A stretch of DNA of 64,000 nt from the NCBI GenBank assembly GCA_030706025.1, contig JAUZPJ010000001.1:1122-65121 (forward strand). The letters are read 5' to 3'. Below are positions 2,658 to 35,869 of the stretch, in pieces; the first letter of the stretch is position 1, and every line of letters starts with the position of its first letter. The translations under genes and the position numbers were made by a program. The DNA comes from Bacillota bacterium. GTDB lineage: Bacteria; Bacillota; Desulfitobacteriia; Desulfitobacteriales; Desulfitobacteriaceae. The notes under the pieces were generated by a model that saw only the letters and a program-made list of their open reading frames with translations, searched no databases and had not been told where the DNA came from.

Positions 2658-3759
2658 ATGGGATCACCATTACAGGGTAGTGTTACACCAAGTCAGTTTA
2701 ATTCCTTACAGACTGATGTAAATCCATTGTCTGAAGTAAGGGCTATTAACGCTGATACGCTTAAGGGAATAATTAATACATCATCAACAACGGTGATTAA
2801 TTTTGTAGGCGATAGCATAATGGAGGGTTTAAAAGCTTCACCAAACTTTAAGGACGGAGGTTTTGCTGGATTACTTAGAACATATTTACAGAATAAGTAT
2901 GGTAGCCTTGGCGGTGGATATACCCCCTATTACTACCCATATGGCAGTCCATCCATGATCTTTACTGGTAGTTGGAATTATTATAATGGTTTCGGCACTA
3001 CTAATATTTATGCACAAAGTGTAGCAGGTGCGGGAAGTTCCGTTGAGTTTGATATTAATGGTATTGGGGTTGAAGTTTATTATAGCCAAGGTGCTTTAGC
3101 TGGAACATATGATTTGTATTCGGATGGGGTATTGATTGAATCTGTTGATACAATTGGTTCTGCTAACCCGATTAATTCTCATGTAACAAGGGGATTATCC
3201 GATGGGCCACATCATATAAAACTCGTAAACACTGGTTCGAAAGCGTTATTTTTGCTTGGATTTAGGGAAGTAACATCCAATACTATTGGTGTATTAACTA
3301 ATATGTGTGGTAGGTATGGTACAAAAACAACAGATGCAATTCCAGCAAATTCATTGGCTTGCACTGAGTATTTTAATCCAAATTTAACAATTATAGCATA
3401 TTTGGCAAATGATTCGTCTATTCAGCTTGATATAGCAACTTATACGTCAAATTTACTAACGCTAATTAATTCTGCTCAGAAAAACGGTGGAAAGGTGTTG
3501 TTAATTGCTGACGGCGTTCATTACCCAACGACAACCCCATTGACGGAAATTCAGTACACGAATGCTATGAGAGCCGTGGCAATAAAAAAGGGTTGTGCAT
3601 TTGTTGATATAAATTATGCATGGGGATATGATGGATATATAGCAAATGCACTTTCTTATTTAGGAGATGGCGTACATCCTAGTACCGCAGGTCATGTATA
3701 CATTTATAAAATAATTAAATATATGCTTGGAGAATAGCTTAAACTTCGCTAAAGGCCCA
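2369..3759. repeat. Imperfect 15-bp inverted repeat pair (2369-2383 and 3745-3759) flanking the SGNH cassette
   Basis: TGGGAGTTTAGCGAA vs reverse complement TGGGCCTTTAGCGAA, 13/15 identical. Confidence 0.55.
2658..3737 (+). CDS. SGNH/GDSL hydrolase-domain protein (virion-associated esterase / receptor-binding)
   Basis: Block I FVGDSI, block III LAND, block V DGVHP motifs. Confidence 0.85.
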   Translation: MGSPLQGSVTPSQFNSLQTDVNPLSEVRAINADTLKGIINTSSTTVINFVGDSIMEGLKASPNFKDGGFAGLLRTYLQNKYGSLGGGYTPYYYPYGSPSMIFTGSWNYYNGFGTTNIYAQSVAGAGSSVEFDINGIGVEVYYSQGALAGTYDLYSDGVLIESVDTIGSANPINSHVTRGLSDGPHHIKLVNTGSKALFLLGFREVTSNTIGVLTNMCGRYGTKTTDAIPANSLACTEYFNPNLTIIAYLANDSSIQLDIATYTSNLLTLINSAQKNGGKVLLIADGVHYPTTTPLTEIQYTNAMRAVAIKKGCAFVDINYAWGYDGYIANALSYLGDGVHPSTAGHVYIYKIIKYMLGE

Positions 3760-4561: not shown

Positions 4562-5389
4562 TTATATCGCTGAATACTTATCATACATGTTCATTTTGGT
4601 TTGCTCATCGAGCATTGCATATCGTTTAGTTGTGTCTGGTCTTGCGTGTCCCAACTCATCCTGGATAAAACCAAGATCGGCACCATTCTTGTAAAGATTA
4701 GTCGCGAATGTGTGACGCATCACGTGGGGAGTGACCTTTGCCCGTAGACCGGATGCTAAACCCATTTGTTTGACCTGTAGCTCGACAGAGCGTATTGAAA
4801 GCCTCTTGCCATAGCGATTAATAAACAAAGCTGGATTTTCATCGGTCCTGGGGGAAAGATAAGCAATCAGACAGAACTTAGCGATTACCGAGAAATGCAC
4901 GAGACGTTCTTTGTTGCCCTTTCCTCGTACCTTTATTCGACGGAAGTTCATGTCTAGATCATCTCGATTAAGCTGGATCATCTCGCTAATCCTCATTCCG
5001 GAAGAGACCAAGAGCTCGAGGATAGCCTGATTTCGGATACTCTTTTCATGGAATCTCAGGCGGTCGAAATCTTCTTTGGTTAATGCCTTAGGAAGCAAAA
5101 CCGCTTCCTTGGGAGTCTTGATTTTGCGCGTGGGGTTCTTCTCTAGGTACTCTTCATCAACTAACCAAGTGTAAAATGCTTTGACAGTGCTTATTTTCCG
5201 AGCTATTGAGTTTTGAGACATATTCTGAAATTGAAGTAAGTATTGACGCAGGTCGTTTGTTGTAGCTTTAACCGTAGGGATATCAAGGTAATTCGCAAGC
5301 TTAACCAGTTCACGTTTGTATTGATCTAAGGTACCGGGTGCCAGTCCATCCAATTTACGGGCTATTAAAAATTCTATGACGTATTTCAT
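4562..5389 (-). CDS. XerC/D-like tyrosine recombinase (no arm-binding domain)
   Basis: Catalytic motifs SGMRISE, GKGNKER, HVMRH, LGH...TKRY; N-terminal SAM-like domain. Confidence 0.95.
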   Translation of the reverse strand: MKYVIEFLIARKLDGLAPGTLDQYKRELVKLANYLDIPTVKATTNDLRQYLLQFQNMSQNSIARKISTVKAFYTWLVDEEYLEKNPTRKIKTPKEAVLLPKALTKEDFDRLRFHEKSIRNQAILELLVSSGMRISEMIQLNRDDLDMNFRRIKVRGKGNKERLVHFSVIAKFCLIAYLSPRTDENPALFINRYGKRLSIRSVELQVKQMGLASGLRAKVTPHVMRHTFATNLYKNGADLGFIQDELGHARPDTTKRYAMLDEQTKMNMYDKYSAI

Positions 5390-6836: not shown

Positions 6837-7967
6837 ATGTCCGAAATGAAAACATGCACTACTTGTGGAGATGAATTCCCGGTTACCATTGAGTATTTTA
6901 GGAAAAGTAAACGAAATAAAGATGGTCTTAAAAATGAATGTAAAAATTGTTCAAAGGCAAAAGACAAATCATATCGTGAAGCAAACAGAGTAATAATAAA
7001 AGAGCGAAATAGGTTGTTCTATGTAGATAACAAAGAATATATCGATGCTAGGAATAAAAAATATGTTCAATCTAATAAAGAAGCGGTCGCGGAAAGGATG
7101 AGAAAGTATCAACTGAAAAATAAGGAATCTATTTCTAAATATCAAAAACAACGTTACAAACATAACAAAGAATTATTTCCAGAAAAACAGAAATTATATC
7201 GTCTTGAAAATAAAGAATCTATTCGTGAAAATTCAAGAAGGTATCGATTAAAAAATAGGGACACTGAATTGAAAAGGCTTAGTCTTTATCGAGAGAATAA
7301 TAGAGCTTCATTGGTTGAAAAAGGAAGGATATACCGATTAGAAAATAAAGTTATTATTCGCGAAAAGCAAAAGAAACGGCAAATAGAAAACAAAGATGCT
7401 ATTCGTGAATACAGCAAAGAATATCATCGAGTTAACAGGGAATCAATCGCTAAAAAGACTAGGATATACTATCAAGCAAACAGGGATTCGATCATTAGAT
7501 ATGTTAAGAGTTACTACCAAAGAAATAAAGAAGTTATCGCAGAAAAAGGAAAGATATATTACAAAAAGAACAGAGAACATATCGCAAAATACGCCAAACA
7601 ATACGCAAAAGATCATAGGGAAGAATGTTCCTTGCGTGGACAACGTTATGAAGCGAAGAAGCGCAAACTTCCAAGCACTTTAACTATTGAGCAATGGGAA
7701 AATGCTAAGTTATATTTTGGCCACAAATGTGCATATTGCGATGGAATTTTTCCATTAGCTAGGGAACATTTTATACCTGTAGACAATGGCGGAGAACTAA
7801 CTAAAGATAATATTATCCCCGCTTGTAGAAGTTGCAATAGTAGCAAAAACAACAAAGAGGCTATATCCTGGTTTAGGCGTCAACCTTTTTACTCCAAGGA
7901 CAAGGAAGACAAGATACTAAATTACTTATGCTACAAAAACCAAAAACAACAACTTAGTATATTTTAA
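6837..7967 (+). CDS. Free-standing HNH endonuclease with N-terminal Zn finger and long helical repeat region
   Basis: CxxC..CxxC N-terminus; about 15-aa K/R/Y repeats; CAYC..EHFIP..GG..NIIPACRSCN HNH motif; ends QQLSIF. Confidence 0.9.
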   Translation: MSEMKTCTTCGDEFPVTIEYFRKSKRNKDGLKNECKNCSKAKDKSYREANRVIIKERNRLFYVDNKEYIDARNKKYVQSNKEAVAERMRKYQLKNKESISKYQKQRYKHNKELFPEKQKLYRLENKESIRENSRRYRLKNRDTELKRLSLYRENNRASLVEKGRIYRLENKVIIREKQKKRQIENKDAIREYSKEYHRVNRESIAKKTRIYYQANRDSIIRYVKSYYQRNKEVIAEKGKIYYKKNREHIAKYAKQYAKDHREECSLRGQRYEAKKRKLPSTLTIEQWENAKLYFGHKCAYCDGIFPLAREHFIPVDNGGELTKDNIIPACRSCNSSKNNKEAISWFRRQPFYSKDKEDKILNYLCYKNQKQQLSIF

Positions 7968-9848: not shown

Positions 9849-11258
9849 TTGTCATTCACTACGAAAGATTCCTTCGTCTTTGATTTTGCGTCGCAAGTAG
9901 ATTATCCGAATTGGACTCCTGCTCAGACGAAACAGAATTTAAACGCTCGTGGCGAAGAATTAAGGTTAGCATTAAATGCCGTGGTTAATCTACTTAATTC
10001 TGTAAACTCAGGAGCGACAGGAGCGGATAATATTGGGGCGACTGCTCCAACCGGATTGACCGGGGAAACAGTTCAGGCGATTCTTAATTCCTTAAAAACT
10101 GCAATAGATGGAGTTTCGCTAGGTGCTATACCTGATGGTTCCTTAACGGATGCAAAACTTTCCCCTAACTCGAAGAAAACTATTCCTCCCGTGGTAACTA
10201 CAAATGTAGGTAATGCTTATTCTGTAACAGTAACAGGGATAACAGCATTAAGCGATATGTTGCCTTTATGTGTGAAATTCAATGCCGCAAGTACGGGAGC
10301 GATTACGGTCAACCTGAATAACTTTGGTGCGATAAGCGTTGTTGATTATTTTGGTAATGCGGTTACGAATGTCAGAACAAATCTTATTGCTAATTTACGG
10401 TATGATGCCGTGAATCAAAATTTTCAATTACAGGGTAAAGGAGGGGGTGGAAACGCAACTAAAGCACAATTATTAAATGGTGCAACGGCTACGGTAGATT
10501 CGGGACCAATTACAGGAGACATGCCAGAGAATGGGCCTTTGAATTATACGCCTTCTGCTTCTCCGCAAATTATACCGGAAGGACATACAACGGGTGGCAC
10601 TGTCGCTGCAGTAACATTTAATGCAGCTAAGGTTTTAAATGATACAACAATTGCAGGAACTAAAGGGACAATGGTTAATCAACCTGGAACAACTACAGCG
10701 AATAATTGGTATGCTGATGGTGCAGGAACCTTAAATCATTTTATACCTTATGGGGCATATCTGACAGATAGTGGAAGTGGTAGTGGAACCCCTAATGTGA
10801 AAGCATATGATCCTAATTTTATTCCTTCAAATATTCTTATTACTGCTAGAGTTTTTGGATTACAAGGAACTATGATTCCTTTTTCCAATGGTCTTATTGC
10901 GGGAAGCGCACAATATTTAAGTGATACTACCTCTTACAGTAGCACATCAACTTCTTGGACAAAAGTAGGCAAACGATACACTGTCAATTACTCAGGAAGT
11001 ATTCGCTTCTCATTTCAGGGATTCCAAACTGTTGTAGGGCAATTTCAGGTTTATAAAAACGGTGTAGCATTTGGAACATTAAGAAACGGTACTGCTGGTC
11101 AATGGGTTGCATGGACAGAGGATTATACATGTAATGCTGGTGACTATTTTGAAGTCTATGTTGCAAGTGGCACATCCAATGCAAGTTATCCTATTGTTAT
11201 ACAATATACGACGATTAGTTTAGGTAATATGTCTACTCCTGCGGTTACGGCTGTTTAA
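9849..11258 (+). CDS. Tail fibre protein
   Basis: IPDGSLTDAKL motif, LQGKGGGGNAT linker, repeated ITGxM / GTM fibre motifs. Confidence 0.75.
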   Translation: MSFTTKDSFVFDFASQVDYPNWTPAQTKQNLNARGEELRLALNAVVNLLNSVNSGATGADNIGATAPTGLTGETVQAILNSLKTAIDGVSLGAIPDGSLTDAKLSPNSKKTIPPVVTTNVGNAYSVTVTGITALSDMLPLCVKFNAASTGAITVNLNNFGAISVVDYFGNAVTNVRTNLIANLRYDAVNQNFQLQGKGGGGNATKAQLLNGATATVDSGPITGDMPENGPLNYTPSASPQIIPEGHTTGGTVAAVTFNAAKVLNDTTIAGTKGTMVNQPGTTTANNWYADGAGTLNHFIPYGAYLTDSGSGSGTPNVKAYDPNFIPSNILITARVFGLQGTMIPFSNGLIAGSAQYLSDTTSYSSTSTSWTKVGKRYTVNYSGSIRFSFQGFQTVVGQFQVYKNGVAFGTLRNGTAGQWVAWTEDYTCNAGDYFEVYVASGTSNASYPIVIQYTTISLGNMSTPAVTAV

Positions 11259-11276: not shown

Positions 11277-11783
11277 ATGCTTTATAAATATCAATATACG
11301 AATTCAACTGATCGACAACAAATTATTGACGGTAATGCGAATAAATCACTTATCGAGGAAGACAATATTGCCGATGGTAATTTTTTAGTATTTTCGGATC
11401 AAGTAATTGAAGGTGGCGACTTAGGGGTAGTAAAGTCGTTAAAAATATCCCAGATAAATAACCTTTACAATCAAAAACTTGCTGAAGGTTTTACCTCATC
11501 TGCTGGTGGAACCGTGGAATCTTTCGGATATACCCAATCTGACCAGATTAACTTCATGAATGCAGCATTAAAGGTACTTCTAAAAGGCACAACTGCTTTT
11601 CCTATAAATATCTACCAGAAAAATGGTGCGGCTGTTACTTTAGACCAAGCACAGTACAGTCAATTGGTTGATGACATAGCCGGATTCTTTGAACCTCTCA
11701 AGGAAAAACAACACGACTACATTACTCAGGTCAACGCTTGCACAACAATAGACGCAGTTAATGCTATAACGGTGGTGTTCTAA
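11277..11783 (+). CDS. Tail fibre assembly protein (DUF4376-like)
   Basis: Follows the fibre gene; DQINF and C-terminal INACTTIDAVNAI-type signature. Confidence 0.6.
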   Translation: MLYKYQYTNSTDRQQIIDGNANKSLIEEDNIADGNFLVFSDQVIEGGDLGVVKSLKISQINNLYNQKLAEGFTSSAGGTVESFGYTQSDQINFMNAALKVLLKGTTAFPINIYQKNGAAVTLDQAQYSQLVDDIAGFFEPLKEKQHDYITQVNACTTIDAVNAITVVF

Positions 11784-12004
11784 TGGGAAAGTATTTTTAT
11801 AATATCCTTATTGGAATTGACCAACTATGTAACACCATTCTCGGCGGTGATCCGGATGAAACAATCTCCTCAAGAATGGGTAAACACCTGGCAAAACACG
11901 ATTCTCCAATCTCAAACATCTTGTGAATGCTTCTTAATATGATCCAGGAGGATCATTGTGTCAAGGCGATCGAATCTGATAGGGGTAATAACGCAACTCT
12001 TTAG
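11783..12004 (+). CDS. 73-aa phage protein (GGDPDETISSR family) with in-frame UGA at codon 48: candidate selenoprotein, otherwise a pseudogene
   Basis: TAATG coupling; MGKYFYNILIGIDQLCNTILGGDPDETISSRMGKHLAKHDSPISNIL-TGA(11924-26)-MLLNMIQEDHCVKAIESDRGNNATL-TAG; hairpin 11939-11956. Confidence 0.6.
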
Positions 12005-19503: not shown

Positions 19504-20274
19504 ATGGAAAATTTTAAAGCGTGTTCAAAATGTGGAGAAAGAAAACCTGCGACCAGTGAATATTTTGTTCGTAAAAAAGACTGTAAAGATGGTATTTCCG
19601 GAACGTGCAAGTCTTGTAAGAGTAAACGAGATAAAGAATATCAGGAAAGAAATAAAGAGTCTATAAAAAAACAAAAACAAAGATATATACTTAAAAACAA
19701 AGATAAAAAGGCTGAAGCCGACAGAAAATACTACCTAGAAAATAAGAAATCAATACTAGAGTACAGGAGACAGCATTATTTAAGAAATAAAGAAAAAAGA
19801 AACAATCAAAGTAGGATGTACTACATTAAAAACAAGGAAAAGATTGATGCGTGGCAAATAAAATACCATGAAGATAATAAAGAAAAAATAAGCAAGTACC
19901 GTAGGCAATACGGAATAATTAACAGAGAAACATATAATATGCACGGACATAACCGAAGGGCTAGGGAAAGAAAACTAGTAGCAACATTAACCCAAAAACA
20001 ATGGGAGCAGATTAAGAGTTTGTTTGGCAATCGTTGTGCATATTGTGGGAAGAAAAAGTTCTTGACTAAAGATCATTTTATCTCATTAACAAACAATGGG
20101 GAATTTAGTCATAATAATATAATCCCTGCTTGTCTTAACTGTAATTGTAGTAAAAAGGATAGATCATTCTTTTCCTGGTATCCGACCTTCAAACACTACT
20201 CCAAGCAACGTGAACAGAATATCCTCAAATACTTAGGTTATACCAACGGAATTCAACAATTATCCTTAATTTAA
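19504..20274 (+). CDS. Free-standing HNH endonuclease, paralog of 6837-7967
   Basis: CSKC..CKSC; CAYC..KDHFI..NIIPACLNCN; ends QQLSLI. Confidence 0.9.
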   Translation: MENFKACSKCGERKPATSEYFVRKKDCKDGISGTCKSCKSKRDKEYQERNKESIKKQKQRYILKNKDKKAEADRKYYLENKKSILEYRRQHYLRNKEKRNNQSRMYYIKNKEKIDAWQIKYHEDNKEKISKYRRQYGIINRETYNMHGHNRRARERKLVATLTQKQWEQIKSLFGNRCAYCGKKKFLTKDHFISLTNNGEFSHNNIIPACLNCNCSKKDRSFFSWYPTFKHYSKQREQNILKYLGYTNGIQQLSLI

Positions 20275-24341: not shown

Positions 24342-24992
24342 TCATAGGGCAAGTAGGGGTAATAACTTCAAGGCCATTAACGCCAAACCACCAATGATCA
24401 TTGTATTACCCAACCTTACTGCGTTTGCGGCATCATTCTTGGGAGCTGGAATCTCTACTGGATTTGGTGTTTCATCAGGCAATTCACTGATATTATTCTT
24501 GATAATTTCGAGATATTTTTCAAAGTTATCATTGTTTTTAAAGTGATCAACGATCTCGACTTTAACTTCTTCCTTGATACCATCAACTGTTACTTCTCGT
24601 TTATAACTCAGTGTATCTTTTGGTTGTTTTACGGTTGACTTACTGCTGCCTTTAAACCTATTTCCAAGTTTAGCCGTGATGTACTTTCCAAGATTGTTTC
24701 CTAACATAGCAGCATTAATTTTATATCCTTCTGGTAGGCCAATCACTATTTGTTTATCGGGAACAATTTGACTCCACATTCCCAAACTGTAAGCCCCCAT
24801 TTTAGGATTTGATTCAGAGAAGAATAGAGAGGTTTGGAGAGGGCTATTCGATGGGTAGGGATATAAGTAGTAGAGTTTTGATTCAGAGGCACTAGCAATG
24901 TTTGGCAAGCTGAGACAAGTTCCTACTAATATAAGTAGTATTGAAATTGCAAGAGTGCGCTTGATGGATGATTTGCGGAGGACTAGTAGCAT
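24342..24992 (-). CDS. Exported / membrane-anchored hypothetical protein
   Basis: N-terminal signal peptide and C-terminal hydrophobic helix; last gene of the minus-strand operon. Confidence 0.55.
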   Translation of the reverse strand: MLLVLRKSSIKRTLAISILLILVGTCLSLPNIASASESKLYYLYPYPSNSPLQTSLFFSESNPKMGAYSLGMWSQIVPDKQIVIGLPEGYKINAAMLGNNLGKYITAKLGNRFKGSSKSTVKQPKDTLSYKREVTVDGIKEEVKVEIVDHFKNNDNFEKYLEIIKNNISELPDETPNPVEIPAPKNDAANAVRLGNTMIIGGLALMALKLLPLLAL

Positions 24993-24993
24993 A

Positions 24994-25425
24994 TTATTTG
25001 CCCCCTTTAACTTTCTTTTTTAGATCCTCAATTAACCCATCATGATCTCGTACAGCTTTTTCTAACCAAGGAGCTAGTAAATCTTTTTCATCCTTTGGAA
25101 GTTGTTGAAAAAACTCCGCAAATTTTTCTTTTGCTAATTCTGGGTTACTACGGTAAGGATTTACAAAGAAATAATCTCTCAGATTACCGTTTTCATTAGA
25201 GATTATAATGAATTCAAAAGGTGTCAGGGGATATTTTGTAGGGATTCCGAAAGATGTAAATCCTCCCGTGGTGTCAGGAATTCTAATCTCATAATAAAGC
25301 TTGTTATCCGTAACGATAATATTATTGTTTGAATTACTTGACATCAATGAGATTGGCGAAAGAACCAGCAATGAAGCTAAAAGCAAACCGACAAGTTTAA
25401 CCATCACAGGATTAGCTACTGGCAT
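24994..25425 (-). CDS. Exported hypothetical protein
   Basis: N-terminal signal/TM; GGAGG RBS. Confidence 0.55.
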   Translation of the reverse strand: MPVANPVMVKLVGLLLASLLVLSPISLMSSNSNNNIIVTDNKLYYEIRIPDTTGGFTSFGIPTKYPLTPFEFIIISNENGNLRDYFFVNPYRSNPELAKEKFAEFFQQLPKDEKDLLAPWLEKAVRDHDGLIEDLKKKVKGGK

Positions 25426-25427
25426 AT

Positions 25428-25697
25428 TTATCTTCCTCCTTCAACAATAAAACCAAGTTCAATCAACCTATCTCTAATATTTAGCCTTTCGCAAATGGCG
25501 TCAATCTGTTCCTTAGGTGTAAGCCTCCAACAAAGTTTATTTATCTCAACAAATAAACCATCAATTCTATCTGGATCATTATCGTCGATTTTATCTTCAA
25601 TATTTTGTTCGATGGTTTCTAATTGAGAAGTTAACCATGTGGCAAGTTCGCAAGGGGTTACGTTATATTTATTGAGAATAGCCATGATTTGATCCAT
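25428..25697 (-). CDS. Hypothetical protein
   Basis: GGAGG RBS; operon packing. Confidence 0.5.
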   Translation of the reverse strand: MDQIMAILNKYNVTPCELATWLTSQLETIEQNIEDKIDDNDPDRIDGLFVEINKLCWRLTPKEQIDAICERLNIRDRLIELGFIVEGGR

Positions 25698-25698
25698 A

Positions 25699-26037
25699 TC
25701 AAACCCTCCATTTCAAATACTTCTTAACCTCGATAACAGACATTCTTTTTGTTGCTTTAGCAAGTCTGCTACCCTTCCAGCATCCATAACGGTGAATGGT
25801 TCTCGCTTTGTCCAAATCTTTTATATCGGCGTAATCAAATGTGTTAAGGCAGTCGAAACAATTGTGACCTTTATTCTGATTGCAATAATTTATATCCCAT
25901 CTGCATGATCCACAAATGGATAGCTTATCAGTTTTTAAACAAGAGTGATATTCGCGGCAAATAGGACATTTCACATTATGAATAATCATTTTTGATTCAA
26001 TTTCGGGAGAGATTAAGCTATTTTCCAACAAGATCAA
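25699..26037 (-). CDS. Cys-rich hypothetical protein
   Basis: CPIC, CGSC and CFDC motifs. Confidence 0.5.
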   Translation of the reverse strand: MILLENSLISPEIESKMIIHNVKCPICREYHSCLKTDKLSICGSCRWDINYCNQNKGHNCFDCLNTFDYADIKDLDKARTIHRYGCWKGSRLAKATKRMSVIEVKKYLKWRV

Positions 26038-26043
26038 TCCTCC

Positions 26044-26736
26044 TCATTTCTTCAAATATCCCATCGGATCAATCGTTTTCCCTCCAACTCGAATTTCAAA
26101 ATGCAAGTGCGGACCGGTTGAATTACCTGTATTTCCACTCAAACCTAATTGACTTTTGGAAAATACATGCTGACCTTTAGTAACCGTTACCTTCGATAAG
26201 TGAGCATAAAGAGTTGCCCATTGTCCTCCGTGATCAACCATTACATAGTTCCCATAAACATTATCAGAGTTAATGGCCATTACGGTTCCATCTCTAGCCG
26301 CCTTAACTGTTGTTTCTTCATTACAAGCAATATCTAAGCCGTGATTTTTATCATTATATCCTTGCGTTATTTCCCCTTTGACCGGCCATTCAAAGCGAAT
26401 TGAACTTGGTCTTATTTTTTCCCATAGTGTGATTGATGGGGGATATTTTGATGCACCTGTTCCGACAATAGGGATTGATTCCTTAGCTTCAGGATATGAA
26501 TTAACCGTGTCTGTAACCGATTGAACGCTATCCTTGACTTTTGAATAAGTAACACTTGCATTATGAATATCATCGAATAGTTGAGTTACGCGTGGTCCTA
26601 TTGCAATTAATAAGGTTAGGATCAATGCTGACCAATAGATATATTTAAGTAGGTGTTTTCCAGCAGGAAAAGCCAATTCAACAAAGGTTCGGGTGATTAC
26701 ATACATAAAGGCTAATTGAGCGATCGACTTAATCAT
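26044..26736 (-). CDS. Membrane-anchored M23 (LytM) peptidase
   Basis: HGLDI (HxxxD), YAHL and STGPHLHFEIR; start at 26736 (ATGA overlap) gives two N-terminal TM helices. Confidence 0.9.
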   Translation of the reverse strand: MIKSIAQLAFMYVITRTFVELAFPAGKHLLKYIYWSALILTLLIAIGPRVTQLFDDIHNASVTYSKVKDSVQSVTDTVNSYPEAKESIPIVGTGASKYPPSITLWEKIRPSSIRFEWPVKGEITQGYNDKNHGLDIACNEETTVKAARDGTVMAINSDNVYGNYVMVDHGGQWATLYAHLSKVTVTKGQHVFSKSQLGLSGNTGNSTGPHLHFEIRVGGKTIDPMGYLKK

Positions 26737-26954
26737 TGCCATATCCCCTTTGATGCTTGACCAGCTATTGCCATGAATTTGCTCACATACTGATAACCGA
26801 TCAACGCAAAGGTTACTCCACCAATGAGCCATATTACTTTCATGAAGCGTCCCCCTTGACCTGTGATGTCTGCTATTTGTTGGCATACCCATATGAACCC
26901 TACTAATTTCAGAAGATTAAACATTAGCTTAATGGCAATTTCGGCGGCATCCAT
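26733..26954 (-). CDS. Small two-TM membrane protein (SpoIIIAC/AD-like topology)
   Basis: MDAAEIAIKLMFNLLKLVGFIWV...; AAGGAG RBS; 73 aa. Confidence 0.55.
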   Translation of the reverse strand: MDAAEIAIKLMFNLLKLVGFIWVCQQIADITGQGGRFMKVIWLIGGVTFALIGYQYVSKFMAIAGQASKGIWQ

Positions 26955-26955
26955 T

Positions 26956-27654
26956 TTAGACCAACTCCTTCTGTCTTCGTTCCTCCCTTTTTCTGAGTAC
27001 AATTCGCCAACTGATTTTCTTGAGTTTGTCTAGTTGGTAGAATTCAAGCCTTACATTTTTCATTCCAGATAGTTCTCTGACTAGTTGGTTTTTGAGAGTT
27101 TCGTAAGATCCCGTTGTAACAACCATTAGGTTTAGAATCTGATCTTCGGCAAATGTCTGAAATAACTTCCTGTAATTCTTATTCCACTTGTTTCCAGACT
27201 CAAGGACTTGAAATTCTCCAAAATAGAAGATTTCTCCATATACTTTGTGTTTCATAACTCCGTAATCATCAATAATAGGAAGTGTTTTGTCCTGGTCAAA
27301 GAATTTCCTTTCCTCTGATTTGAAGTAGGTAAGTTCTTGATTATTTTGAGAGTCTAGGGACTTCATATGCCAAGCTGTATAAATCCACGCTTTTCCTAAT
27401 CGATGCTGAATCTGGTCTGGACGTTTCTCGTCGTAGAGATAAAACCAATCTGGTATATCGGACCAGGACATTTTTACTCTGCGGATCAACTTATCTTTCT
27501 CTAGTCTTTGAGTGCAGCGGTGACTCATTTCGGTGCTGACGTTCCAAAACTCAAGCAAATGGATTTGTTCCTGACTTAAGCATTTTAATTGATCGAGATG
27601 AGCCAGAACCCTGAGATCGCGTTTGTGTCCTTGGACGTGGGTAGTTTGGTTCAT
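26956..27654 (-). CDS. Replication-relaxation (Replic_Relax-like) protein
   Basis: N-terminal wHTH (RDLRVLAHL...LSQEQI), conserved His (QIQHRL), degenerate PD-(D/E)xK C-terminus; adjacent to FtsK. Confidence 0.65.
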   Translation of the reverse strand: MNQTTHVQGHKRDLRVLAHLDQLKCLSQEQIHLLEFWNVSTEMSHRCTQRLEKDKLIRRVKMSWSDIPDWFYLYDEKRPDQIQHRLGKAWIYTAWHMKSLDSQNNQELTYFKSEERKFFDQDKTLPIIDDYGVMKHKVYGEIFYFGEFQVLESGNKWNKNYRKLFQTFAEDQILNLMVVTTGSYETLKNQLVRELSGMKNVRLEFYQLDKLKKISWRIVLRKREERRQKELV

Positions 27655-28915
27655 ATTCGTACACCTCGCCTTCGATGTCTGTGTAGGGGAGAGGTATTTT
27701 AGGTAGTTGGGACATAAGTTGATTAAATAACTTTGGATGTTTGTTTTCTGTCGGGAAGTATGGTGTCTGAACCTCTTCCTCAGTATCGTATTTGTATATT
27801 GCCCTGCCTGGTGTTTTGGGTATATATGCTGCTTTGTCGCTTTCGAGAATCATTTGACTGTTAATACGATCTGCCATTCGAAAGGCAATTCTGGCCTCAA
27901 ATTGACTCTTATACTCCGTAAATAAGTTATTGTTTCCCCATGCCTTTGCCGAAGGACGTTGGGTTGCAGAGATACAATAAATTCCCTGTGAACGATATTT
28001 CTTAACTGATTTTAGGAGTAATTCGGCACAATATTTATCCTCTCCAACCATATCAACCTCATCAACAAGTAACACTGCATAGGGCATACTGTTTCCCTTG
28101 ATTGAGTTATACTCCAAGATATCCCTGCATTTTCCGAGTTTGTTTTTGCGCTCCTTGTCTGCCTTGTCGATTAAGAACAGAAGTTTTAGGTAATCAAGTT
28201 CTTCATGAACGAAGGTTGCTCCGTAATCCTCGAAGTATTCAAACTCCTTATTTTTAGGACCTATGATTGCGACTTGAACATAATCCTTTCCAGTGATCTT
28301 ATTGAGTAGTAGCAGGGTGTAAATGATTTGGTGCATGGCGGTTGATTTTCCCTTTCCCCTGAGTCCTACGATGAGCAAGGAATAGATAACGGTCAAGTCC
28401 TGTACGATGGGTCCATTTACACCTTGGCCGATCAGGATAGGAAGTTTCATGGTTTTCAAGTAGGGAGTTGGGTCGAAGGAATAGGAGTATTCTTTTTCAA
28501 GGGAAATGTTTGAAATGGTCATATATACTGCTTCACCATTGCGCTCTATCTCTGCCGATCCACCAACTGCAGTTGCAAAGTGTCCTTCCCTTGACTTGAA
28601 TTCGGAATACTCGATGCCGGGGGGCAGGTGAATCACTAAAAACCAAGTTTGCTTCTTCTTCGGCCTGACTTTAATCCAATGGACAATTTCCTGAGCAGTA
28701 AACTTTTTAGGTAGGTTTGGCTTAAGATTATTTTTCTTTTCCGATGGAGAAAGTAAGGTTTTTTCGAAGATAAATGGTTTCATAGGGTATTTCTTGTAAA
28801 GTATTTCAATGGTATCCCAGACTGCCGATGGTATTTCATCGTCAGGTCCACGGTATAAAGCTCTCATGAAAGTATCTTTGAGGTTATTCACGAATTCATC
28901 ATTTTGTTGCTTCAT
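27551..28915 (-). CDS. FtsK/SpoIIIE-family ATPase
   Basis: Walker A GLRGKGKST, Walker B VLLVDEV, ATQRP and PGRAI motifs. Confidence 0.92.
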   Translation of the reverse strand: MKQQNDEFVNNLKDTFMRALYRGPDDEIPSAVWDTIEILYKKYPMKPFIFEKTLLSPSEKKNNLKPNLPKKFTAQEIVHWIKVRPKKKQTWFLVIHLPPGIEYSEFKSREGHFATAVGGSAEIERNGEAVYMTISNISLEKEYSYSFDPTPYLKTMKLPILIGQGVNGPIVQDLTVIYSLLIVGLRGKGKSTAMHQIIYTLLLLNKITGKDYVQVAIIGPKNKEFEYFEDYGATFVHEELDYLKLLFLIDKADKERKNKLGKCRDILEYNSIKGNSMPYAVLLVDEVDMVGEDKYCAELLLKSVKKYRSQGIYCISATQRPSAKAWGNNNLFTEYKSQFEARIAFRMADRINSQMILESDKAAYIPKTPGRAIYKYDTEEEVQTPYFPTENKHPKLFNQLMSQLPKIPLPYTDIEGEVYEYEPNYPRPRTQTRSQGSGSSRSIKMLKSGTNPFA

Positions 28916-29094
28916 GTGTTTTTTGGTATCACTCCTTTCTCTTTCAACTTAAGTCGGATACCATCACGAATTAAATCTGATAGTTCACCTTGTTCGAGTT
29001 TCTTTTTTGGTCTTTGTTCTGCGAGTTGTTTTAATCCCTGCCTTATGTCGCGGTCCAAACGGCTCCTGAGTCTTACGCGAAGATCATTTTGCAA
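28912..29094 (-). CDS. RHH protein heading the FtsK operon
   Basis: LRVRLR...ELSDLIRDGIR; AAGGAGG RBS. Confidence 0.65.
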   Translation of the reverse strand: MQNDLRVRLRSRLDRDIRQGLKQLAEQRPKKKLEQGELSDLIRDGIRLKLKEKGVIPKNT

Positions 29095-29319
29095 GTTTTA
29101 CCCTCCTTTTGTGGTTAGATTGTGGAACAAATTTTCTGTTAAATTTTGCGGAGCTATAAAACTCCGCACAAAATTTTGTCCGATAGAAAGGGTATAATTG
29201 AATCCTAGAGTCGAATTATTTGATTACTATGGGTGACTCTGTGATAGATAATATTAACGATAATTAATAAAAATGCACGTACAAAAAATAAAAATAAATT
29301 AAAAAAGACCTGACTTTTT

Positions 29320-29505
29320 TTAGTCAGGCCAGAGGTATTCTATAGGATAAACGAGTGCTTTTGAAATTTTCTTTGCTGTCTCAAGATTTATGGATTTTCT
29401 CTCATTGACAATACGACTTAATGTAGTCTGGGATATACCTGTCATATGTGATAATTCTTCCTGAGTTATCCCTCTCCTTTTCATAATTTCCTTGATTCTA
29501 TTCAA
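29320..29505 (-). CDS. XRE-family HTH regulator
   Basis: NRIKEIMKRRGITQEELSHMTGISQTTLSRI; likely TTG start at 29505. Confidence 0.85.
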   Translation of the reverse strand: MNRIKEIMKRRGITQEELSHMTGISQTTLSRIVNERKSINLETAKKISKALVYPIEYLWPD

Positions 29506-29527
29506 TTTTTCATCACCGAGGAAATTA

Positions 29528-29655
29528 TTTCCACGCAAATTTCGTAATTCCTTCTGACAAAAAACGAGTAAAAATACTGCCAATACTAAGTTAATATTAC
29601 CTTTCGTTAATATAATTTTTTTCGTCAATATGCCTAATTTTTTGCGATTTCGACA
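29528..29655 (-). promoter_or_regulatory. Sigma-H-like promoter and two Spo0A boxes
   Basis: Minus strand GAAGGAATT-N11-GTGGAAA (29554-29528); TGNCGAA at 29621-29627 and 29649-29655. Confidence 0.45.
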
Positions 29656-29958
29656 CGTGATATATAATATACTTCACGTAACGAAATTAATTACAATAAA
29701 GGACTAAAGACCTATTGTAAAATAGGAAATTATTCCTATGGGTAGCAAGCGAAGGAGATGAATTGACCCACTAAAGACAGAATATCATAACGTATATTAC
29801 TATTGAGGGATCATATGCACAAAGAAAGGAAGTCCGAATCCAGGGCATTGAGCTTCGGACTTCCCCTACAGAAAACAACCTCCGAAAAGGTGTCTTGTCA
29901 GCTTCATTTTACATCATTGGATACCTTTCGGCAAGGTATGAAAGAAGGTTTAAGGTAA

Positions 29959-30210
29959 ATGTTTAACCTTATGATTACCTTAAGGACAGCAAGGGAATTG
30001 AATGGTTACACAATTGAAGAAGTCGCAGAGTTTTGCGATTTAACCATTGGGGAATATGAAGAAATTGAAAAAGATCCAAGTAACTTCTCACTAAGAATAA
30101 TCTCTACCATAGCAAACCTATATGGGGTATCATTGAAATACATCTATGCTGGAACTGAAAATGATTGTGTTTCGCACAATAAATCACGCAAAATTGGAAA
30201 CGATGTTTGA
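29959..30210 (+). CDS. XRE-family HTH protein
   Basis: ITLRTARELNGYTIEEVAE...EKDPS. Confidence 0.8.
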   Translation: MFNLMITLRTARELNGYTIEEVAEFCDLTIGEYEEIEKDPSNFSLRIISTIANLYGVSLKYIYAGTENDCVSHNKSRKIGNDV

Positions 30211-30452
30211 CCACAGAATGACCACATAATGACCACGCAACCAAGTAAATATTACGATATTTCGTTAAGTATGTTACACCTTCATATTTAAAATTATCAC
30301 ATTTCATGCACACTTATCGCATATAATAAAAGATGTTACACGAAATTTCGTAATAATAACCTCATGGGCGGCATGATGTAACGTTGACCAAAAAGGTAGA
30401 CGTACCAATGGTTAGACGCTATGATGTTGCGCATTGACCACTTTTTGACCAC
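30208..30452. other. attP: core ATGGGCGGCATGATGTAA (30364-30381, groEL 3' end) with TGACCAC arm sites
   Basis: Core encodes MGGMM*; TGACCAC at 30208, 30219, 30230, 30435 and 30446; directly downstream of the integrase. Confidence 0.85.
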
Positions 30453-30467
30453 ATAAAGAAGATATTT

Positions 30468-31646
30468 TTAGAGGTTTCTCATGAGTTCGCTGAACTTTTG
30501 AGAAGCCTCTTTTTTCATTGTCTTTGTTACGTGCAAGTATACCCTTCTGGTTATTTCATCGTCAGAGTGTCCTAACCTTTCCATAATTTCTTCTAGGCCA
30601 ACTCTTGCTTCAGCTAATAACGATGTATGGGTGTGTCTTAATGAGTGGGGAGTTAAGTTTGTATTTAGTCCTGCAAGTTTAAGCAATCTATTCATTCGAT
30701 TTTCGATCTTCTTGATATATATTGGATAACCATAATTCTTTTCGGTCATAGAAAATATAAAATCTTTATCGTGGTAAACTTTCCTGTGTTCCATTTTTAC
30801 AATCTTTTGGCGAGATTGGTGTAATTCTAGTTCGGCTAAGACAATAGCATCTATTTCTATTATCCGAATGGAACTCTTTGTCTTCGGGGGTAGTAATTGA
30901 TATTTTCTGATGTTGTTTTTCGGATTGTAATAAGTTTTAGTGATACTTATTGTCTGGTTCTCGAAATCAATATCTTTCCATTTCAAAGCACATAATTCTC
31001 CGGCCCTCATACCGGTATAAGCTAAAGTAAGGAAAATTATATAGTCCATTTCAAATCCATTTTCTTTTGCCATTTTTAAAAATGAAGATAGTTCATCTTT
31101 TTCAAGATATTCTGGCACTTCTGTCTCGGATTCTATTTCATCAACTGTTTTTTGGGTTCTAGGTATTATTGCGTATTGAGTAGGATCTACTTTTATATAA
31201 CCCAATTCAACGGCCTTTTTAAAGATCATTCTTCCAGTACAATGAATACCTTCAAGCGTAGTGTGTGCAAGCCCTTTATCTTTAAGGTCATTCAAAGCGG
31301 ATTGATATAACTTTCGGGTAATATTTTTCATCTTATATTTTGCGAAGTAAGCTAAGAGTCTCCCTGACTCATGCTCCCTAACCCTTACGGTACTTACTTT
31401 AACTCTTCCTGTTGCTTGGTATAATCCGAGCCATTCTCCTTTAAAATCTTCAAAAGTTATTTCTGCTTCTTTCACATAGGTACCCTGGTCTAACTCATTC
31501 ATTAGCACGGCTGCAGCAAGCTGTGCTTCTTTTTTTGTCTTAAATCCCCCCTTGCTTCGCTGGTCCCTATCTCCTGTATCTGGTTTTATTCCTACGTCAA
31601 TTGTGTAGTACCACGTTTTGCCACGTTTTCTGTAATATCCCTTCAT
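30468..31646 (-). CDS. int: Phage integrase (tyrosine recombinase with arm-binding domain)
   Basis: GFKTKKEA arm domain; TGMRAGEL, HSLRHTH, RLGH...VYLH. Confidence 0.96.
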   Translation of the reverse strand: MKGYYRKRGKTWYYTIDVGIKPDTGDRDQRSKGGFKTKKEAQLAAAVLMNELDQGTYVKEAEITFEDFKGEWLGLYQATGRVKVSTVRVREHESGRLLAYFAKYKMKNITRKLYQSALNDLKDKGLAHTTLEGIHCTGRMIFKKAVELGYIKVDPTQYAIIPRTQKTVDEIESETEVPEYLEKDELSSFLKMAKENGFEMDYIIFLTLAYTGMRAGELCALKWKDIDFENQTISITKTYYNPKNNIRKYQLLPPKTKSSIRIIEIDAIVLAELELHQSRQKIVKMEHRKVYHDKDFIFSMTEKNYGYPIYIKKIENRMNRLLKLAGLNTNLTPHSLRHTHTSLLAEARVGLEEIMERLGHSDDEITRRVYLHVTKTMKKEASQKFSELMRNL

Positions 31647-31677
31647 GTCGCAAATTACTCCTTTTGGGAATCCAAAT

Positions 31678-32049
31678 TTATTTAACTACTCTAAAAATAC
31701 CTTCGCTGTCTCCTGATCTCAAACAATCTGAATCAGTTAATAACTTTTCATTCAGATATAATTGCAACCTCTTGATTCCATAATCATTAAGAAGCTCGAT
31801 TCCACTTATTTTCTCGATGATGGAATCATGCGTTTCTTTAATAGTGCCAACTTTTCCTGTTGCCAGGTAATCAACGGTTACGCCAAAATAATCAGCCAAC
31901 TTAACGGCACTCTCAAATTTAATATCTTTTAGTTTCTTTTTAATGATGCTATCCACTGTTGTATAAGGCATTTCCGTATCTCTTGCAATGTCTGATATTT
32001 TAACTTTCTTTTCATCTACCAACTTTTGAAATACTTCCCAAAGTTCCAA
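31678..32049 (-). CDS. CI-like XRE repressor
   Basis: HTH ending KLADYFGVTVDYL; divergent from the Cro-like gene. Confidence 0.8.
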   Translation of the reverse strand: MELWEVFQKLVDEKKVKISDIARDTEMPYTTVDSIIKKKLKDIKFESAVKLADYFGVTVDYLATGKVGTIKETHDSIIEKISGIELLNDYGIKRLQLYLNEKLLTDSDCLRSGDSEGIFRVVK

Positions 32050-32114
32050 GGTTTTTTCGCACCTCCGTTTCCTGTTTCAATATAAAGGCTCTACTAACGC
32101 CATTATATATTATC

Positions 32115-32190
32115 TACGAAAATTAGTAAATCTATACTTGACCTTCTACGAAATATCGTGTAATATATAATCAAGTTACGAAACATCGTA
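32115..32190. promoter_or_regulatory. Lysis-lysogeny switch: three 14-bp operators and a rightward promoter
   Basis: TACGAAAATTAGTA 32115, TACGAAATATCGTG 32147, TACGAAACATCGTA 32177; TTGACC-17-TAATAT (32138-32166). Confidence 0.75.
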
Positions 32191-32193
32191 ACA

Positions 32194-32454
32194 ATGAAGG
32201 GAAGTGAATTCGAAATGTTTTACCCAACTTTCAAGGCAGAAGTTGCTAGAAGGGGATTAAAACCGGTGGATGTTGTTATGGATGCCTTGAAATGTTCTCA
32301 AAAAACCGCACACAACAAAGTAACCGGTACAACGTCAATTACATTAGTTGAAACAACTATCATCCGAGACAAGTATTTCCCCAAGATGACCCTAGATGAT
32401 TTATTTCTACCTATCGAAGTATCCACAGAAGAGGACGTGCAATCTTATGGATAA
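32194..32454 (+). CDS. Cro-like HTH protein
   Basis: YPTFKAEVARRG...IRDKYFPKMTLDDLF signature. Confidence 0.75.
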   Translation: MKGSEFEMFYPTFKAEVARRGLKPVDVVMDALKCSQKTAHNKVTGTTSITLVETTIIRDKYFPKMTLDDLFLPIEVSTEEDVQSYG

Positions 32455-32638
32455 TCTTCCAGAAATACTTACAGCGAAGCACATAGCATCGTACTTAGGG
32501 ATATCACGAAGGCGTGTTTATGAATTATTTCAAACTCTTCCCAAGGCTGGGGGAATTCCAAACTTTAGTATCGGTGCTTCTAAGAGGGTTGAGAAGAAAG
32601 ACTTCATTAAATGGATTAGTGATTGTAAGAAAAGGTAA
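32447..32638 (+). CDS. Excisionase-like HTH_17 protein
   Basis: LPEILTAKHIASYLGISRRRVYEL...IGASKRVEK..FIKW. Confidence 0.8.
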   Translation: MDNLPEILTAKHIASYLGISRRRVYELFQTLPKAGGIPNFSIGASKRVEKKDFIKWISDCKKR

Positions 32639-32660
32639 AAAAACTAGCAAGGTGGTTTTA

Positions 32661-33191
32661 GTGAAGAATAAATTTCTAATCCTTGGAGATGTAACTGTAA
32701 TTTTTCTTCAAAAAGTAAGGGGCAAACAATTGAGGACCATTATTGACACAGTTGACTTGCCGAGAGCGCAAGAATTTCCTCATACGTGGACAGCGGGAAT
32801 TAAGGATCATTATGTTAGGGGTAAATTTCAAGAACCAAGAAATGGGAGAAAAAATCCTCCTATTCAGACGGTATCTCTTCATCGTTGGATAACGAACGCT
32901 TCTTCAGGTCTTCAAGTTGACCACAAAAACCATATACCACTTGATAATAGGCGATCTGAAAATTTAAGAATTGGTACTCAGTCGCTTAATCAACAAAATA
33001 GAAAAGAAGCTTATTGTAAAAGCGGTTATAGGGGAGTTTATCCCAAGGGCAATAAATGGAAAGTGGAAATCATGGTTCAAGGCAAAAGATTTTATCTCGG
33101 TATCTATGGCGATAAAAAATTCGCAGCACAAGTAGCATCCGAGGCAAGAGCAGCGTGTATGCCGTTCACCCAAGAAATCTTAATTAGTTAG
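32661..33191 (+). CDS. HNH endonuclease with AP2 domain
   Basis: SLHRWI..VDHKNH.PLDNRRSENLR; SGYRGV...YLG AP2 motif; GTG start at 32661. Confidence 0.85.
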   Translation: MKNKFLILGDVTVIFLQKVRGKQLRTIIDTVDLPRAQEFPHTWTAGIKDHYVRGKFQEPRNGRKNPPIQTVSLHRWITNASSGLQVDHKNHIPLDNRRSENLRIGTQSLNQQNRKEAYCKSGYRGVYPKGNKWKVEIMVQGKRFYLGIYGDKKFAAQVASEARAACMPFTQEILIS

Positions 33192-33487
33192 GGCCATGAA
33201 ATCTATATCGAACCATCTGAAGGTCAACTTAATAACTTTGCATCCAAGCTAGTCAAATAGCCTTTTATTTAAAGGAAAAGTAGGACAATCCATATTTCCA
33301 AGCTATCTAGGTCAAGCCTGACAATCTATCACAAAGGGGAGATATATAAGGAGGAATGAGCATGATCAAGGTTCTCGTGAACAAATCAAGAGAGAGTTTA
33401 AGTTTTGCCATTGGTTTTGTTGTAATAACTTTTCTAGTCATCGGCATTATGGCTCGTCCATTCATCTTGAAGTAGGAGGTTATTTAT

Positions 33488-33898
33488 ATGGCAAAAACTC
33501 TTTCATTTCCAACGATTGATGATCGCAAAAATGTTCATGGTTTAATCAATCTCTATTCTCTTAATAAAATTAGCCGGGACGATTTTATGCGGTTTGTAGC
33601 TAACATTATTAGTAAGTACAAAATTGGTAGCTTTCCGGTGTTCGGTTACTCGGTCAAAATCCTCCAATGGTACAAAGATGTTCCTGTAATAGCTATCAAG
33701 TCGGACATAATCGCTGATGTTTGCCCAAGTTGTGGTTCTGGAACAAATGAGGCTCGGTACTTACGGACGGAAAAGGAAAATTTTGATCTTGATTACGATG
33801 TTATAAGTCTTAATTGTCTTGGTTGTGGTTGCGTTTATGCTGCAAAAGGGGAAAATCATCGGACAAATAAAAAAATGAAGGTCGAGGTAATTAAATGA
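33488..33898 (+). CDS. Hypothetical Zn-ribbon protein
   Basis: GGAGG RBS; CPSC..CLGC. Confidence 0.5.
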   Translation: MAKTLSFPTIDDRKNVHGLINLYSLNKISRDDFMRFVANIISKYKIGSFPVFGYSVKILQWYKDVPVIAIKSDIIADVCPSCGSGTNEARYLRTEKENFDLDYDVISLNCLGCGCVYAAKGENHRTNKKMKVEVIK

Positions 33899-34140
33899 AT
33901 AATCCAGCTAACGAAATCAGTCTCTCCGCTAAGAAAGCAGGTCTATCCTACTGGTCCTACATGGCTAAGAAGTATCCTAATCGTGTACAATCCTACATTT
34001 GGGCACCAAAAGCGAAAAAGTTAACAAGGAAAGAACGTTCTGAAATCATGGGAGATATCTTAAGTCGGATGCATGGAAAAATGGGGCTCAAGTTTTTGTC
34101 TGGTATTCGTAATCTGATTAGCGGCAGAGGGGCGTATTAA
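33895..34140 (+). CDS. Hypothetical protein
   Basis: Overlapping operon gene with RBS. Confidence 0.45.
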   Translation: MNNPANEISLSAKKAGLSYWSYMAKKYPNRVQSYIWAPKAKKLTRKERSEIMGDILSRMHGKMGLKFLSGIRNLISGRGAY

Positions 34141-34141
34141 G

Positions 34142-34408
34142 TTGAGGATCGATATTGGACCTAATCACTGTCTAACCTCAGACAGTTCCCAAGTAATAAT
34201 CAATGAAAAAAGTGTGAACAAGAAAGTTGACTCAGAGAACTTCGGCAAGGAAGTTTTAAGACCAATCGGTTATGTCAGGACTCTACGGCAAGCTTATTAC
34301 TTCTTACTCCATAGGAAACTAAGGGAATCTGATGCAAATGGTTTTAAGGAAGTCTTGGCAGAATTATTACGGATCGAAAAAGAACTTAAGGAATCTATTC
34401 GTATCTAA
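34142..34408 (+). CDS. Hypothetical phage protein (DUF5405-like)
   Basis: LTSD..QVII...IGY pattern. Confidence 0.45.
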   Translation: MRIDIGPNHCLTSDSSQVIINEKSVNKKVDSENFGKEVLRPIGYVRTLRQAYYFLLHRKLRESDANGFKEVLAELLRIEKELKESIRI

Positions 34409-34456
34409 CGGAGTTGATACAAAATTAGCATTCTAACATACGAAGATGTTCACAGA

Positions 34457-35116
34457 ATGTACATTGTCGATGGTAGGTCTGATTCGGAAATTGCTAAACA
34501 TTTTGGAATTGATCGAACGGCTGTTGTTCACTTCAGAAAATATCACGACATTCCAACTAGAATTTATACTGGGGAAACTGGCGAGGGGATTGTCGCATTT
34601 GAACTACAGAAAAACGATTTTGTTGTAGTCAATATGAATCTTCGATCAAAAATTCATCCATTTGACTTACTGGTTAACGGAAAGGTTCGCATCGATGTAA
34701 AGTCAGCGATTATGTATCAAGGATCTTGGAAATTCAACTTTGGACAGAAACCACAGTCTGGAATTATTGAAAGTGATCATTACATTCGTCTTCCTAACGG
34801 TAGAATGAAGAAGCTTTTTAGTACAGTTTGTGATTTCTTGATTCTATGTTGCATTCACGATGATAATCATTTCTTATTTGTTTTGCCAACCTCTGTAATA
34901 CCCGATACCCAACAGACAATTGCTATTTATTCTTCTGGGGTGGGTAAATGGTGGGAATGGAAAGATAGGTTTGATCTTATCTGGGGGGTGATTAGAAATC
35001 AATCATACTCAGGCAATATTTCTAGGTCATGCGATTCCAATGTTAATAGTCCTTCAAATTTTAATGGAGATTTATGTCTTGCAAAAGAAAATGGACCGAA
35101 AGCTCGGCAAAGCTAA
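34457..35116 (+). CDS. HTH plus PD-(D/E)XK endonuclease
   Basis: SDSEIAKHFG HTH; GE..PFDLLVN..RIDVKS. Confidence 0.7.
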   Translation: MYIVDGRSDSEIAKHFGIDRTAVVHFRKYHDIPTRIYTGETGEGIVAFELQKNDFVVVNMNLRSKIHPFDLLVNGKVRIDVKSAIMYQGSWKFNFGQKPQSGIIESDHYIRLPNGRMKKLFSTVCDFLILCCIHDDNHFLFVLPTSVIPDTQQTIAIYSSGVGKWWEWKDRFDLIWGVIRNQSYSGNISRSCDSNVNSPSNFNGDLCLAKENGPKARQS

Positions 35117-35196
35117 CGGACCAAAAGAAAATTAACTCACTAAAGATTATAGCTCAACCGTTGTAATTATTCCATATCTACAGAGAGGGGATATTT

Positions 35197-35442
35197 ATGA
35201 ACGTTGACAAAAGGCGAAAGGCTGAATGTTTTACTTTTGATTGCAAATATGCGGAAACACGTTGCATTGTTTTTCACGGTAACGATTGCGTTAAATTAGG
35301 CGGCAATAAAATACCGGTCATGCGAAGTCTAGGTAATCCTAAGCCAAAATCAGAAAAGCCATCATTGATTAAGCCAAAGTTTGTAAATCTAGAAGGTTGG
35401 GACATTGAAAGTATTTTAAGGAGTGAGGTTGATTATGCGTAA
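35197..35442 (+). CDS. Hypothetical protein
   Basis: GAGGGG RBS; Cys cluster. Confidence 0.45.
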   Translation: MNVDKRRKAECFTFDCKYAETRCIVFHGNDCVKLGGNKIPVMRSLGNPKPKSEKPSLIKPKFVNLEGWDIESILRSEVDYA

Positions 35443-35698: not shown

Positions 35699-35869
35699 GT
35701 GATCGGATGGAGTCATACCACTTGTCCTATAGTCCATTTCTTAAATTTCTAGAAACATGCGAGGGATGCATTGTCGGATCAATACACCAAAAACAATGCA
35801 GATTTTCTGCCAGATGTGAAATTGCAGAATCATTGCAGCAGAGAGGGTTGGTAACTAATTCAGAAGATC

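Follow-up and report, generated by a model that had tools for sequence, protein, structure and literature searches.

An in-frame UGA codon, probably read as selenocysteine, in a small tail-module gene of a temperate phage

The sequence analyzed here (the window, 64,000 nucleotides) makes up most of a 67.7-kb contig, C1, in the genome bin G000 (3.19 Mb in 511 contigs, 79.7% complete). Its gene content reads as that of a temperate phage, with tail and virion genes, an endolysin, a holin, integrases, a repressor-like gene, a terminase, and a portal. A probable tail fibre gene (positions 9849 to 11258, forward strand; phrog_14469 tail fiber, E = 8e-12, and phrog_28171) heads a module in which a profile match identifies a DUF4376/PHROG 1348 gene (11277 to 11783, forward strand), a predicted tail-fibre chaperone, directly upstream of a 73-codon gene of PHROG 3342 (11783 to 12004, forward strand). 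The ATG of this small gene at position 11783 overlaps the stop codon of its neighbor in a TAATG sequence (11781 to 11785, forward strand) that couples the two genes. Codon 48 is an in-frame TGA (11924 to 11926, forward strand) that falls in a conserved cysteine column and likely encodes selenocysteine (Sec), and 25 open codons follow it up to a TAG at 12002 to 12004. When the coordinates were rechecked in the sequence, they agreed with a preliminary description of the locus, which had reported the coupled frame, its internal UGA, and the 25 further codons. TGA terminates 10 of the 41 window ORFs of at least 150 codons, which indicates that the phage uses the standard code with TGA as a normal stop and speaks against a phage-wide code change.

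Several other features of the window deserve mention. Three tyrosine-integrase genes are found on the one phage contig (4562 to 5389, 30468 to 31646, and 52194 to 53087), and an integrase gene 3′ end (30435 to 30524) matches many genomes of the bin's order, at up to 96% over 48 to 90 bases, and may hold an att core. There are several HNH or endonuclease VII genes (6837 to 7967, 19504 to 20274, and 32514 to 33191), two of them inside the structural and lysis region. FtsK/SpoIIIE-like and peptidase-domain genes (24342 to 28915, minus strand) run opposite to the late genes, and two ORFs of 364 and 1,524 amino acids with no PHROG match, possibly ejected inner-core proteins, flank a transglycosylase-domain gene between 12053 and 19125.

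DUF4376 proteins have been named tail-fibre chaperones in the Alteromonas phages V22 (gp27) and A5 (gp9) (PMC10579305), whose modules resemble that of the window, in gene order only, by running from tail fibre to DUF4376 chaperone to a small gene of unknown function. The gene immediately before the family member is of the PHROG 1348/DUF4376 type in the window and in all of the 7 other UGA alleles described below except L084, while a DUF4376-like gene precedes 21 of 46 loci with a sense codon at the same column, the upstream gene being of another kind in the other 25. Gene order and translational coupling give roughly even odds that the 73-residue protein is an accessory of tail-fibre assembly that works with the DUF4376 chaperone. 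It had been suggested earlier that the protein belongs to a virion module or is lysis-adjacent; the former stands, as a tail module with a tail-fibre chaperone, and the connection to lysis does not.

The PHROG 3342 HMM, whose function is unknown, matches residues 1 to 67 of the protein (E = 9e-19), and the likeness resides in the shared D13, N17, G22, E26-T-x-S-S-R, H58, and E64; phrog_34710 and phrog_23985 are related. No match was obtained in Pfam or NCBIfam for the 73-aa protein, and the family comprises 3,543 representatives at 50% identity. The predicted model (mean pLDDT, 81) consists of four helices (residues 2 to 19, 28 to 38, 42 to 54, and 58 to 61). A fold search of the PDB returned nothing at an E value of 0.001 or better (best Z score of 3.0 in a wide search), and fold matches in BFVD were uncharacterised phage proteins only. 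Across 147 distant representatives of the family, His58 and Asn17 are invariant (147/147 each) and Asp13 is present in 146.

The nearest full-length homologues, which reach 77% identity, have cysteine at column 48, and the 48 viral loci with a sense codon there mostly use TGT or TGC. These alignments place the UGA at a conserved Cys, as the preliminary description had proposed, and the motif that it gave, C..L....HC, proved right in substance, the actual form being C48-x9-H58-C59 (codons for His58 and Cys59 at 11954 to 11959, forward strand). The residue at column 59 co-occurs with that at column 48: in the closer set, both are Cys in 177 proteins, neither is in 25, only column 59 is in 8, only column 48 in none, and 8 combine the UGA with Cys59. 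Corresponding numbers for the 147 distant representatives are 95 with both, 37 with neither, 13 with Cys59 only, and 2 with Cys48 only. Most relatives thus have Cys at column 48, and 50 of the 147 distant ones lack it, so Sec is not needed for the function of the family. Most members of PHROG 3342 carry Cys or another residue at this column, while the UGA members have no upstream CxxC and are annotated as proteins of 46 to 62 residues. Among 177 Cys alleles, 125 have a CxxC motif ahead of Cys48, versus 0 of 26 UGA or short alleles, a count that overstates independence since the alleles are kin.

The UGA is a recurrent feature of the family. TGA occupies column 48 in eight distinct DNA alleles (the window, L074, L083, L084, L088, L090, L091, and L137), and since seven of these lie outside the window, a sequencing error cannot account for the pattern. 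A UGA confined to this assembly had been one of four observations set out in advance as refuting, none of which was made. Search patterns without any base downstream of the stop brought up six of the seven alleles outside the window; L137 was recovered solely by a pattern that included the hairpin loop. DNA scans that allowed TAA gave 1, 2, 6, and 1 stop matches, all of them TGA, and scans that allowed TAG gave no TAG match at column 48. At the protein level, a first search and a second one that started from short members together yielded 192 family proteins, 20 of which are short; in 19 of these 20, which form 15 clusters at 90%, the last residue is the one just before the Cys column. The stop codon is known for 3 of these 19, namely, the window protein, P0123 (matching L083), and P0071 (matching L084), the two matches each extending over 47 aligned columns.

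Further searches delimit this distribution. One scan of the genome collection for additional UGA alleles gave 0 matches, and the single match of the other was not a family gene; a pattern with 42-nt spacing gave 0 matches, and L138 was rejected as a chance match. A protein search of 400 genomes of the phylum found no homologue. Among 103 genomes of the order, the sole homologue was a frameshifted Cys-type copy, L086, in the complete same-genus genome G026 (contig C1 of that genome, about 4448640 to 4448810). Family homologues in cultured phages amount to 28 records, all below 60% identity; Caulobacter phage Percy is a cultured phage with a homologue. A second UGA lineage (L090, positions 3001 to 3009; L137, 4001 to 4009; L091, about 5055 to 5069) has extra cysteines beside the Sec site, two of these alleles reading U-R-C and one C-x-x-x-U.

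All eight UGA alleles stay open for 23 to 27 codons past the UGA. Over codons 49 to 69 they are 49 to 79% identical in DNA, with a pN/pS ratio of 0.30 (28 pairs of the 8 alleles), indicative of purifying selection on the residues encoded past the stop. Trees of the family from which the trait columns had been removed (55 of 236 rows, 62 columns) split the UGA alleles into two groups that lie among Cys alleles, with 3 to 4 state changes. A single UGA clade was not rejected (p-AU, 0.10 and 0.18), and on these sequences either several origins or one origin with reversions could account for the pattern. Codon 48 is in any case a real and conserved recoding site, and without Sec the product would end at 47 residues and lose the invariant His58 as well as Glu64.

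A bSECIS-like hairpin follows the UGA (11939 to 11956, forward strand), supported by folding and by covariation across UGA alleles. It has a 7-bp stem (11939 to 11945 paired with 11950 to 11956), an AGGA loop (11946 to 11949), and a C-G closing pair, and the distance from the UGA is 12 nt to the stem and 19 nt to the loop, exactly as first described. The published model of bSECIS elements calls for a loop of 3 to 9 nt, a stem of 4 to 16 bp, a G in the first two loop positions, and 16- to 37-nt spacing, with an energy of at most −7.5 kcal/mol (PMC13188914). The window hairpin agrees with all four structural features of that model (PMC13188914), and its energy is −7.8 kcal/mol for the 18-nt hairpin alone and −12.2 kcal/mol over 48 nt. 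As 18-nt hairpins, only that of the window reaches −7.5 kcal/mol, the other UGA alleles ranging from −4.9 to −7.4; over 48 nt, 7 of the 8 alleles reach it (6 of the 7 outside the window). By itself the window hairpin stands out only slightly: its z score is −2.16, 9 of 200 shuffled sequences fold equally well, and with synonymous redraws the p value is 0.049 for energy and 0.085 for the number of pairs. The hairpin alone being modest evidence, the case rests on the comparison with relatives. A loose bSECIS screen was passed by 3 of the 172 TGA-ending window frames of at least 30 codons, with the codon-48 site the strongest. The exact motif, defined as at least 6 of 7 pairs in the window's register plus a C-AGGN-G loop, lies downstream of 3 of the 111,365 TGA triplets in G000, one of them the codon-48 site, and occurs once in each of three other phage records, every time in a PHROG 3342 gene.

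Comparison of alleles separates the UGA members from the Cys members. In seven UGA alleles, 6 to 7 of the 7 pairs form and the C-AGGN-G loop is present (7/7), and the eighth allele shares the loop; an AGGN loop at 19-nt spacing with 6 to 7 pairs is found in 8/8. By comparison, 30 distinct Cys alleles (after exclusion of nine rows that have a different residue in that register) average 3.4 pairs, and the C-AGGN-G loop occurs in 0/30, so the possibility that Cys-encoding homologues share the hairpin, which had been raised as a test, did not refute the reading. The Cys allele L042 reaches 6 of 7 pairs, with a different loop. Across the UGA alleles, 3 of the 7 stem pairs change on both sides, a covariation score that 0 of 500 shuffles reached, the shuffles taking no account of kinship among alleles that may share one origin. 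Slid registers pair at 22 to 57% versus 90% in the true register, and synonymous difference among UGA alleles is 0.51 inside the hairpin versus 0.96 after it. The hairpin also leaves a trace in the protein: the residue pair at the loop is commonly Gln-Lys, Glu-Lys, or Asp-x, and it is Gln-Glu, Gln-Val, or Gln-Ala in the UGA alleles because the loop sequence requires those codons. Among the alleles compared, the hairpin is specific to those with UGA and covaries.

The bin that contains the phage contig is equipped for Sec. G000 encodes selA, one selB with a SECIS-binding wing, tRNA-Sec, and a selD with its own UGA, which answers in the negative whether the host, itself assigned indirectly, lacks the selABC genes; it also has dsrA. 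All 18 genomes sampled from the bin's genus have selD, which is frameshifted in this assembly of G000. On C177 (L059, L060), the reading frame of this UGA-bearing gene shifts after about residue 190, by assembly error or real decay. Host selenoprotein genes were found by family searches, a loose genome-wide hairpin scan and a self-BLAST having been too noisy; two fdh genes, grdB, and selD bear a UGA, and FlpD of G000 has no in-frame stop. In these four host hairpins, the stem begins at +11 to +13 and the loop at +18 or +19, no more than 2 nt from the phage positions (stem from +13, loop from +20). Host loops are G rich in 3 of 4 and AGGN in 0 of 4, and that of selD has no leading G. In 24 selD loci of the order (L097 to L120), the stem is kept at about +11 to +13 and the loop sequence varies freely, which suggests that the SelB of this group may need no fixed loop.

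Since comparison of C1 with the rest of the bin gave no att or spacer match (and no cas1), we infer the host from DNA similarity. The strongest matches of window positions 28000 to 47000 among the 103 order genomes fall in the genus of the bin; the integrase matches there at 68 to 75%, and another gene of the region, which we take to be ssb, at up to 80%. An SSB sought in three phage records as a means of placing their hosts was not found. DNA of L074 matches 25 of the 41 other genus genomes versus 1 of 70 others, and that of L084 matches 15 of 41 versus 2 of 70. One record of the L088/L090/L091/L137 lineage had no match among 401 genomes of the phylum. The similarities thus point to a host genus for 3 of the 8 UGA alleles (the window, L074, and L084), linking these three phages to the Sec-using genus of the bin. 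Judged by its gene content, this genus is probably Desulfosporosinus.

Collectively, the UGA at a Cys column, the selection past it, the allele-specific hairpin, and the machinery of the linked genome argue that codon 48 is read as selenocysteine, with a probability that we put at roughly 0.88. The hairpin 12 nt past the UGA would recruit SelB and tRNA-Sec of the putative host; SelB would bind the AGGA hairpin, and Sec would be inserted at codon 48. The product would be a 73-residue, predicted helical protein that may aid tail-fibre assembly and in which Sec48 may bond to Cys59 and so fix the His58 helix. The arrangement resembles bacterial SelB/bSECIS selenoprotein genes of the Escherichia coli fdhF type in its UGA at a Cys column, its short-stemmed hairpin, whose loop lies 19 nt downstream with a G among the first two bases, and the Sec machinery of the linked genome; it differs from them in that the 73-codon gene is phage borne and sits in a tail module. 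Unlike the catalogued bacterial selenoproteins, the protein is predicted to be all helical, and its likely partner Cys is 11 residues away. It falls outside the thioredoxin-fold or CxxU/UxxC redox selenoproteins, having neither motif in its sequence and no Trx-like fold in the predicted model. 

Three other readings of the site together hold a small share of the probability. In the first, which we consider very improbable, SelB-dependent recoding would insert Cys by way of a tRNA-Sec-shaped tRNA-Cys or a tRNA-Cys with a UCA anticodon. A tRNA-Sec-shaped tRNA-Cys has been reported for Desulfotomaculum nigrificans (PMC11415595), so a system of this kind is described; the relatives do have Cys at column 48, and contig C214 of G000 starts with a tRNA-Cys body that has a TCA anticodon (positions 6 to 79, L143). 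This tRNA is probably an assembly error, lying at a contig start with a mismatch that breaks its acceptor stem and recurring in 0 of the 41 other genus genomes; no tRNA was called on the phage contig C1. At 80% completeness, G000 yielded only a single SelB and a single full tRNA-Sec, and keeping a UGA and a hairpin just to encode Cys brings no evident benefit.

Recoding sets product ratios in phage late genes, and a near-cognate tRNA (Trp or Cys) might likewise read the UGA leakily, stimulated by the hairpin, so that little full-length product would be made relative to the 47-residue form, and none of it with selenium. Selection on the downstream codons would be expected from any read-through. 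That leakage alone explains the site is scarcely credible, however: the stop is only ever UGA and only at the Cys column, the loop sequence and spacing are fixed in 8/8 near the arrangement of the host's Sec genes, and the 47-residue product would be without the invariant residues. An ordinary nonsense mutation (TGY to TGA is a single change, and a decayed copy exists in G026) or a gene split with an ATG restart (TGA-ATG occurs in the window and L091) has a negligible chance, as does a code change, given that the ATG is absent after the TGA in 6 of 8 alleles, that purifying selection and covariation continue past the stop, and that TGA is a normal stop in the window.

What the selenocysteine would do is a separate matter. 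From the co-occurrence of columns 48 and 59, we tentatively propose, at somewhat less than even odds, that a selenenyl-sulfide bond between Sec48 and Cys59 replaces a disulfide and staples helix 3 to helix 4. Alternatively, Sec48 might be a metal ligand or catalytic residue together with Cys59, His58, and the conserved acids D13, E26, and E64, the protein then being a small enzyme or a metal-binding cap carried along with tail modules. The near-invariance of His58 (147/147), Asn17 (147/147), and Asp13 (146/147) in distant representatives is consistent with such a site, and the CxxC before Cys48, present in 125/177 Cys alleles and in 0/26 UGA or short alleles, suggests a changed metal or redox site. 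In 37 of 147 representatives, however, neither Cys is present although His58 is retained, a pattern more in keeping with a dispensable bridge than with a catalytic thiol, and we regard this alternative, the main rival of the bridge, as the less likely.

Among viruses, poxviruses have glutathione-peroxidase selenoproteins. The earlier statement that few or no phage selenoproteins have been characterised is borne out within the literature searched, in which, with few subscription papers covered, no phage selenoprotein was found. A 2026 catalogue of 119 prokaryotic selenoprotein families, the source of the bSECIS consensus model (PMC13188914), does not contain the words "phage" and "virus" in its main text, and none of the entries in its Table 1, compared by description only, is described as such a protein; both words are likewise absent from the main text of BSepDB (PMC13326102). 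In Basilisk-like phages, a phage-encoded tRNA-SeC has been called (PMC6145125), which shares with the present case the connection between phage and Sec, but theirs is a tRNA call and not a selenoprotein gene. Judging from sequence comparison, the window gene very likely encodes a phage selenoprotein from a family outside those catalogued, its function being deduced from context.

A broader scenario, improbable as a whole on the present evidence, is that this selenoprotein family is specific to phages: in phages of anaerobic, Sec-using Bacillota, the tail module would have switched from a conserved Cys to Sec repeatedly, its coding sequence being remodelled each time into the same SelB hairpin with loss of the CxxC; the Sec48-Cys59 staple would withstand the reducing conditions of an anoxic cell; and the phage could finish its tail fibre only with host selenium and SelB, a new constraint on host range. 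The gene offers a small, testable case with natural controls: the same 73-residue protein exists in putative Sec alleles and in Cys alleles, the hairpin is present or absent together with the UGA, and a host genus is linked. If the selenocysteine reading is true, it adds a helical family without a redox motif to the selenoproteome, accounts for at least 15 protein clusters annotated as truncated, and makes host SelB a possible requirement of phage late genes.
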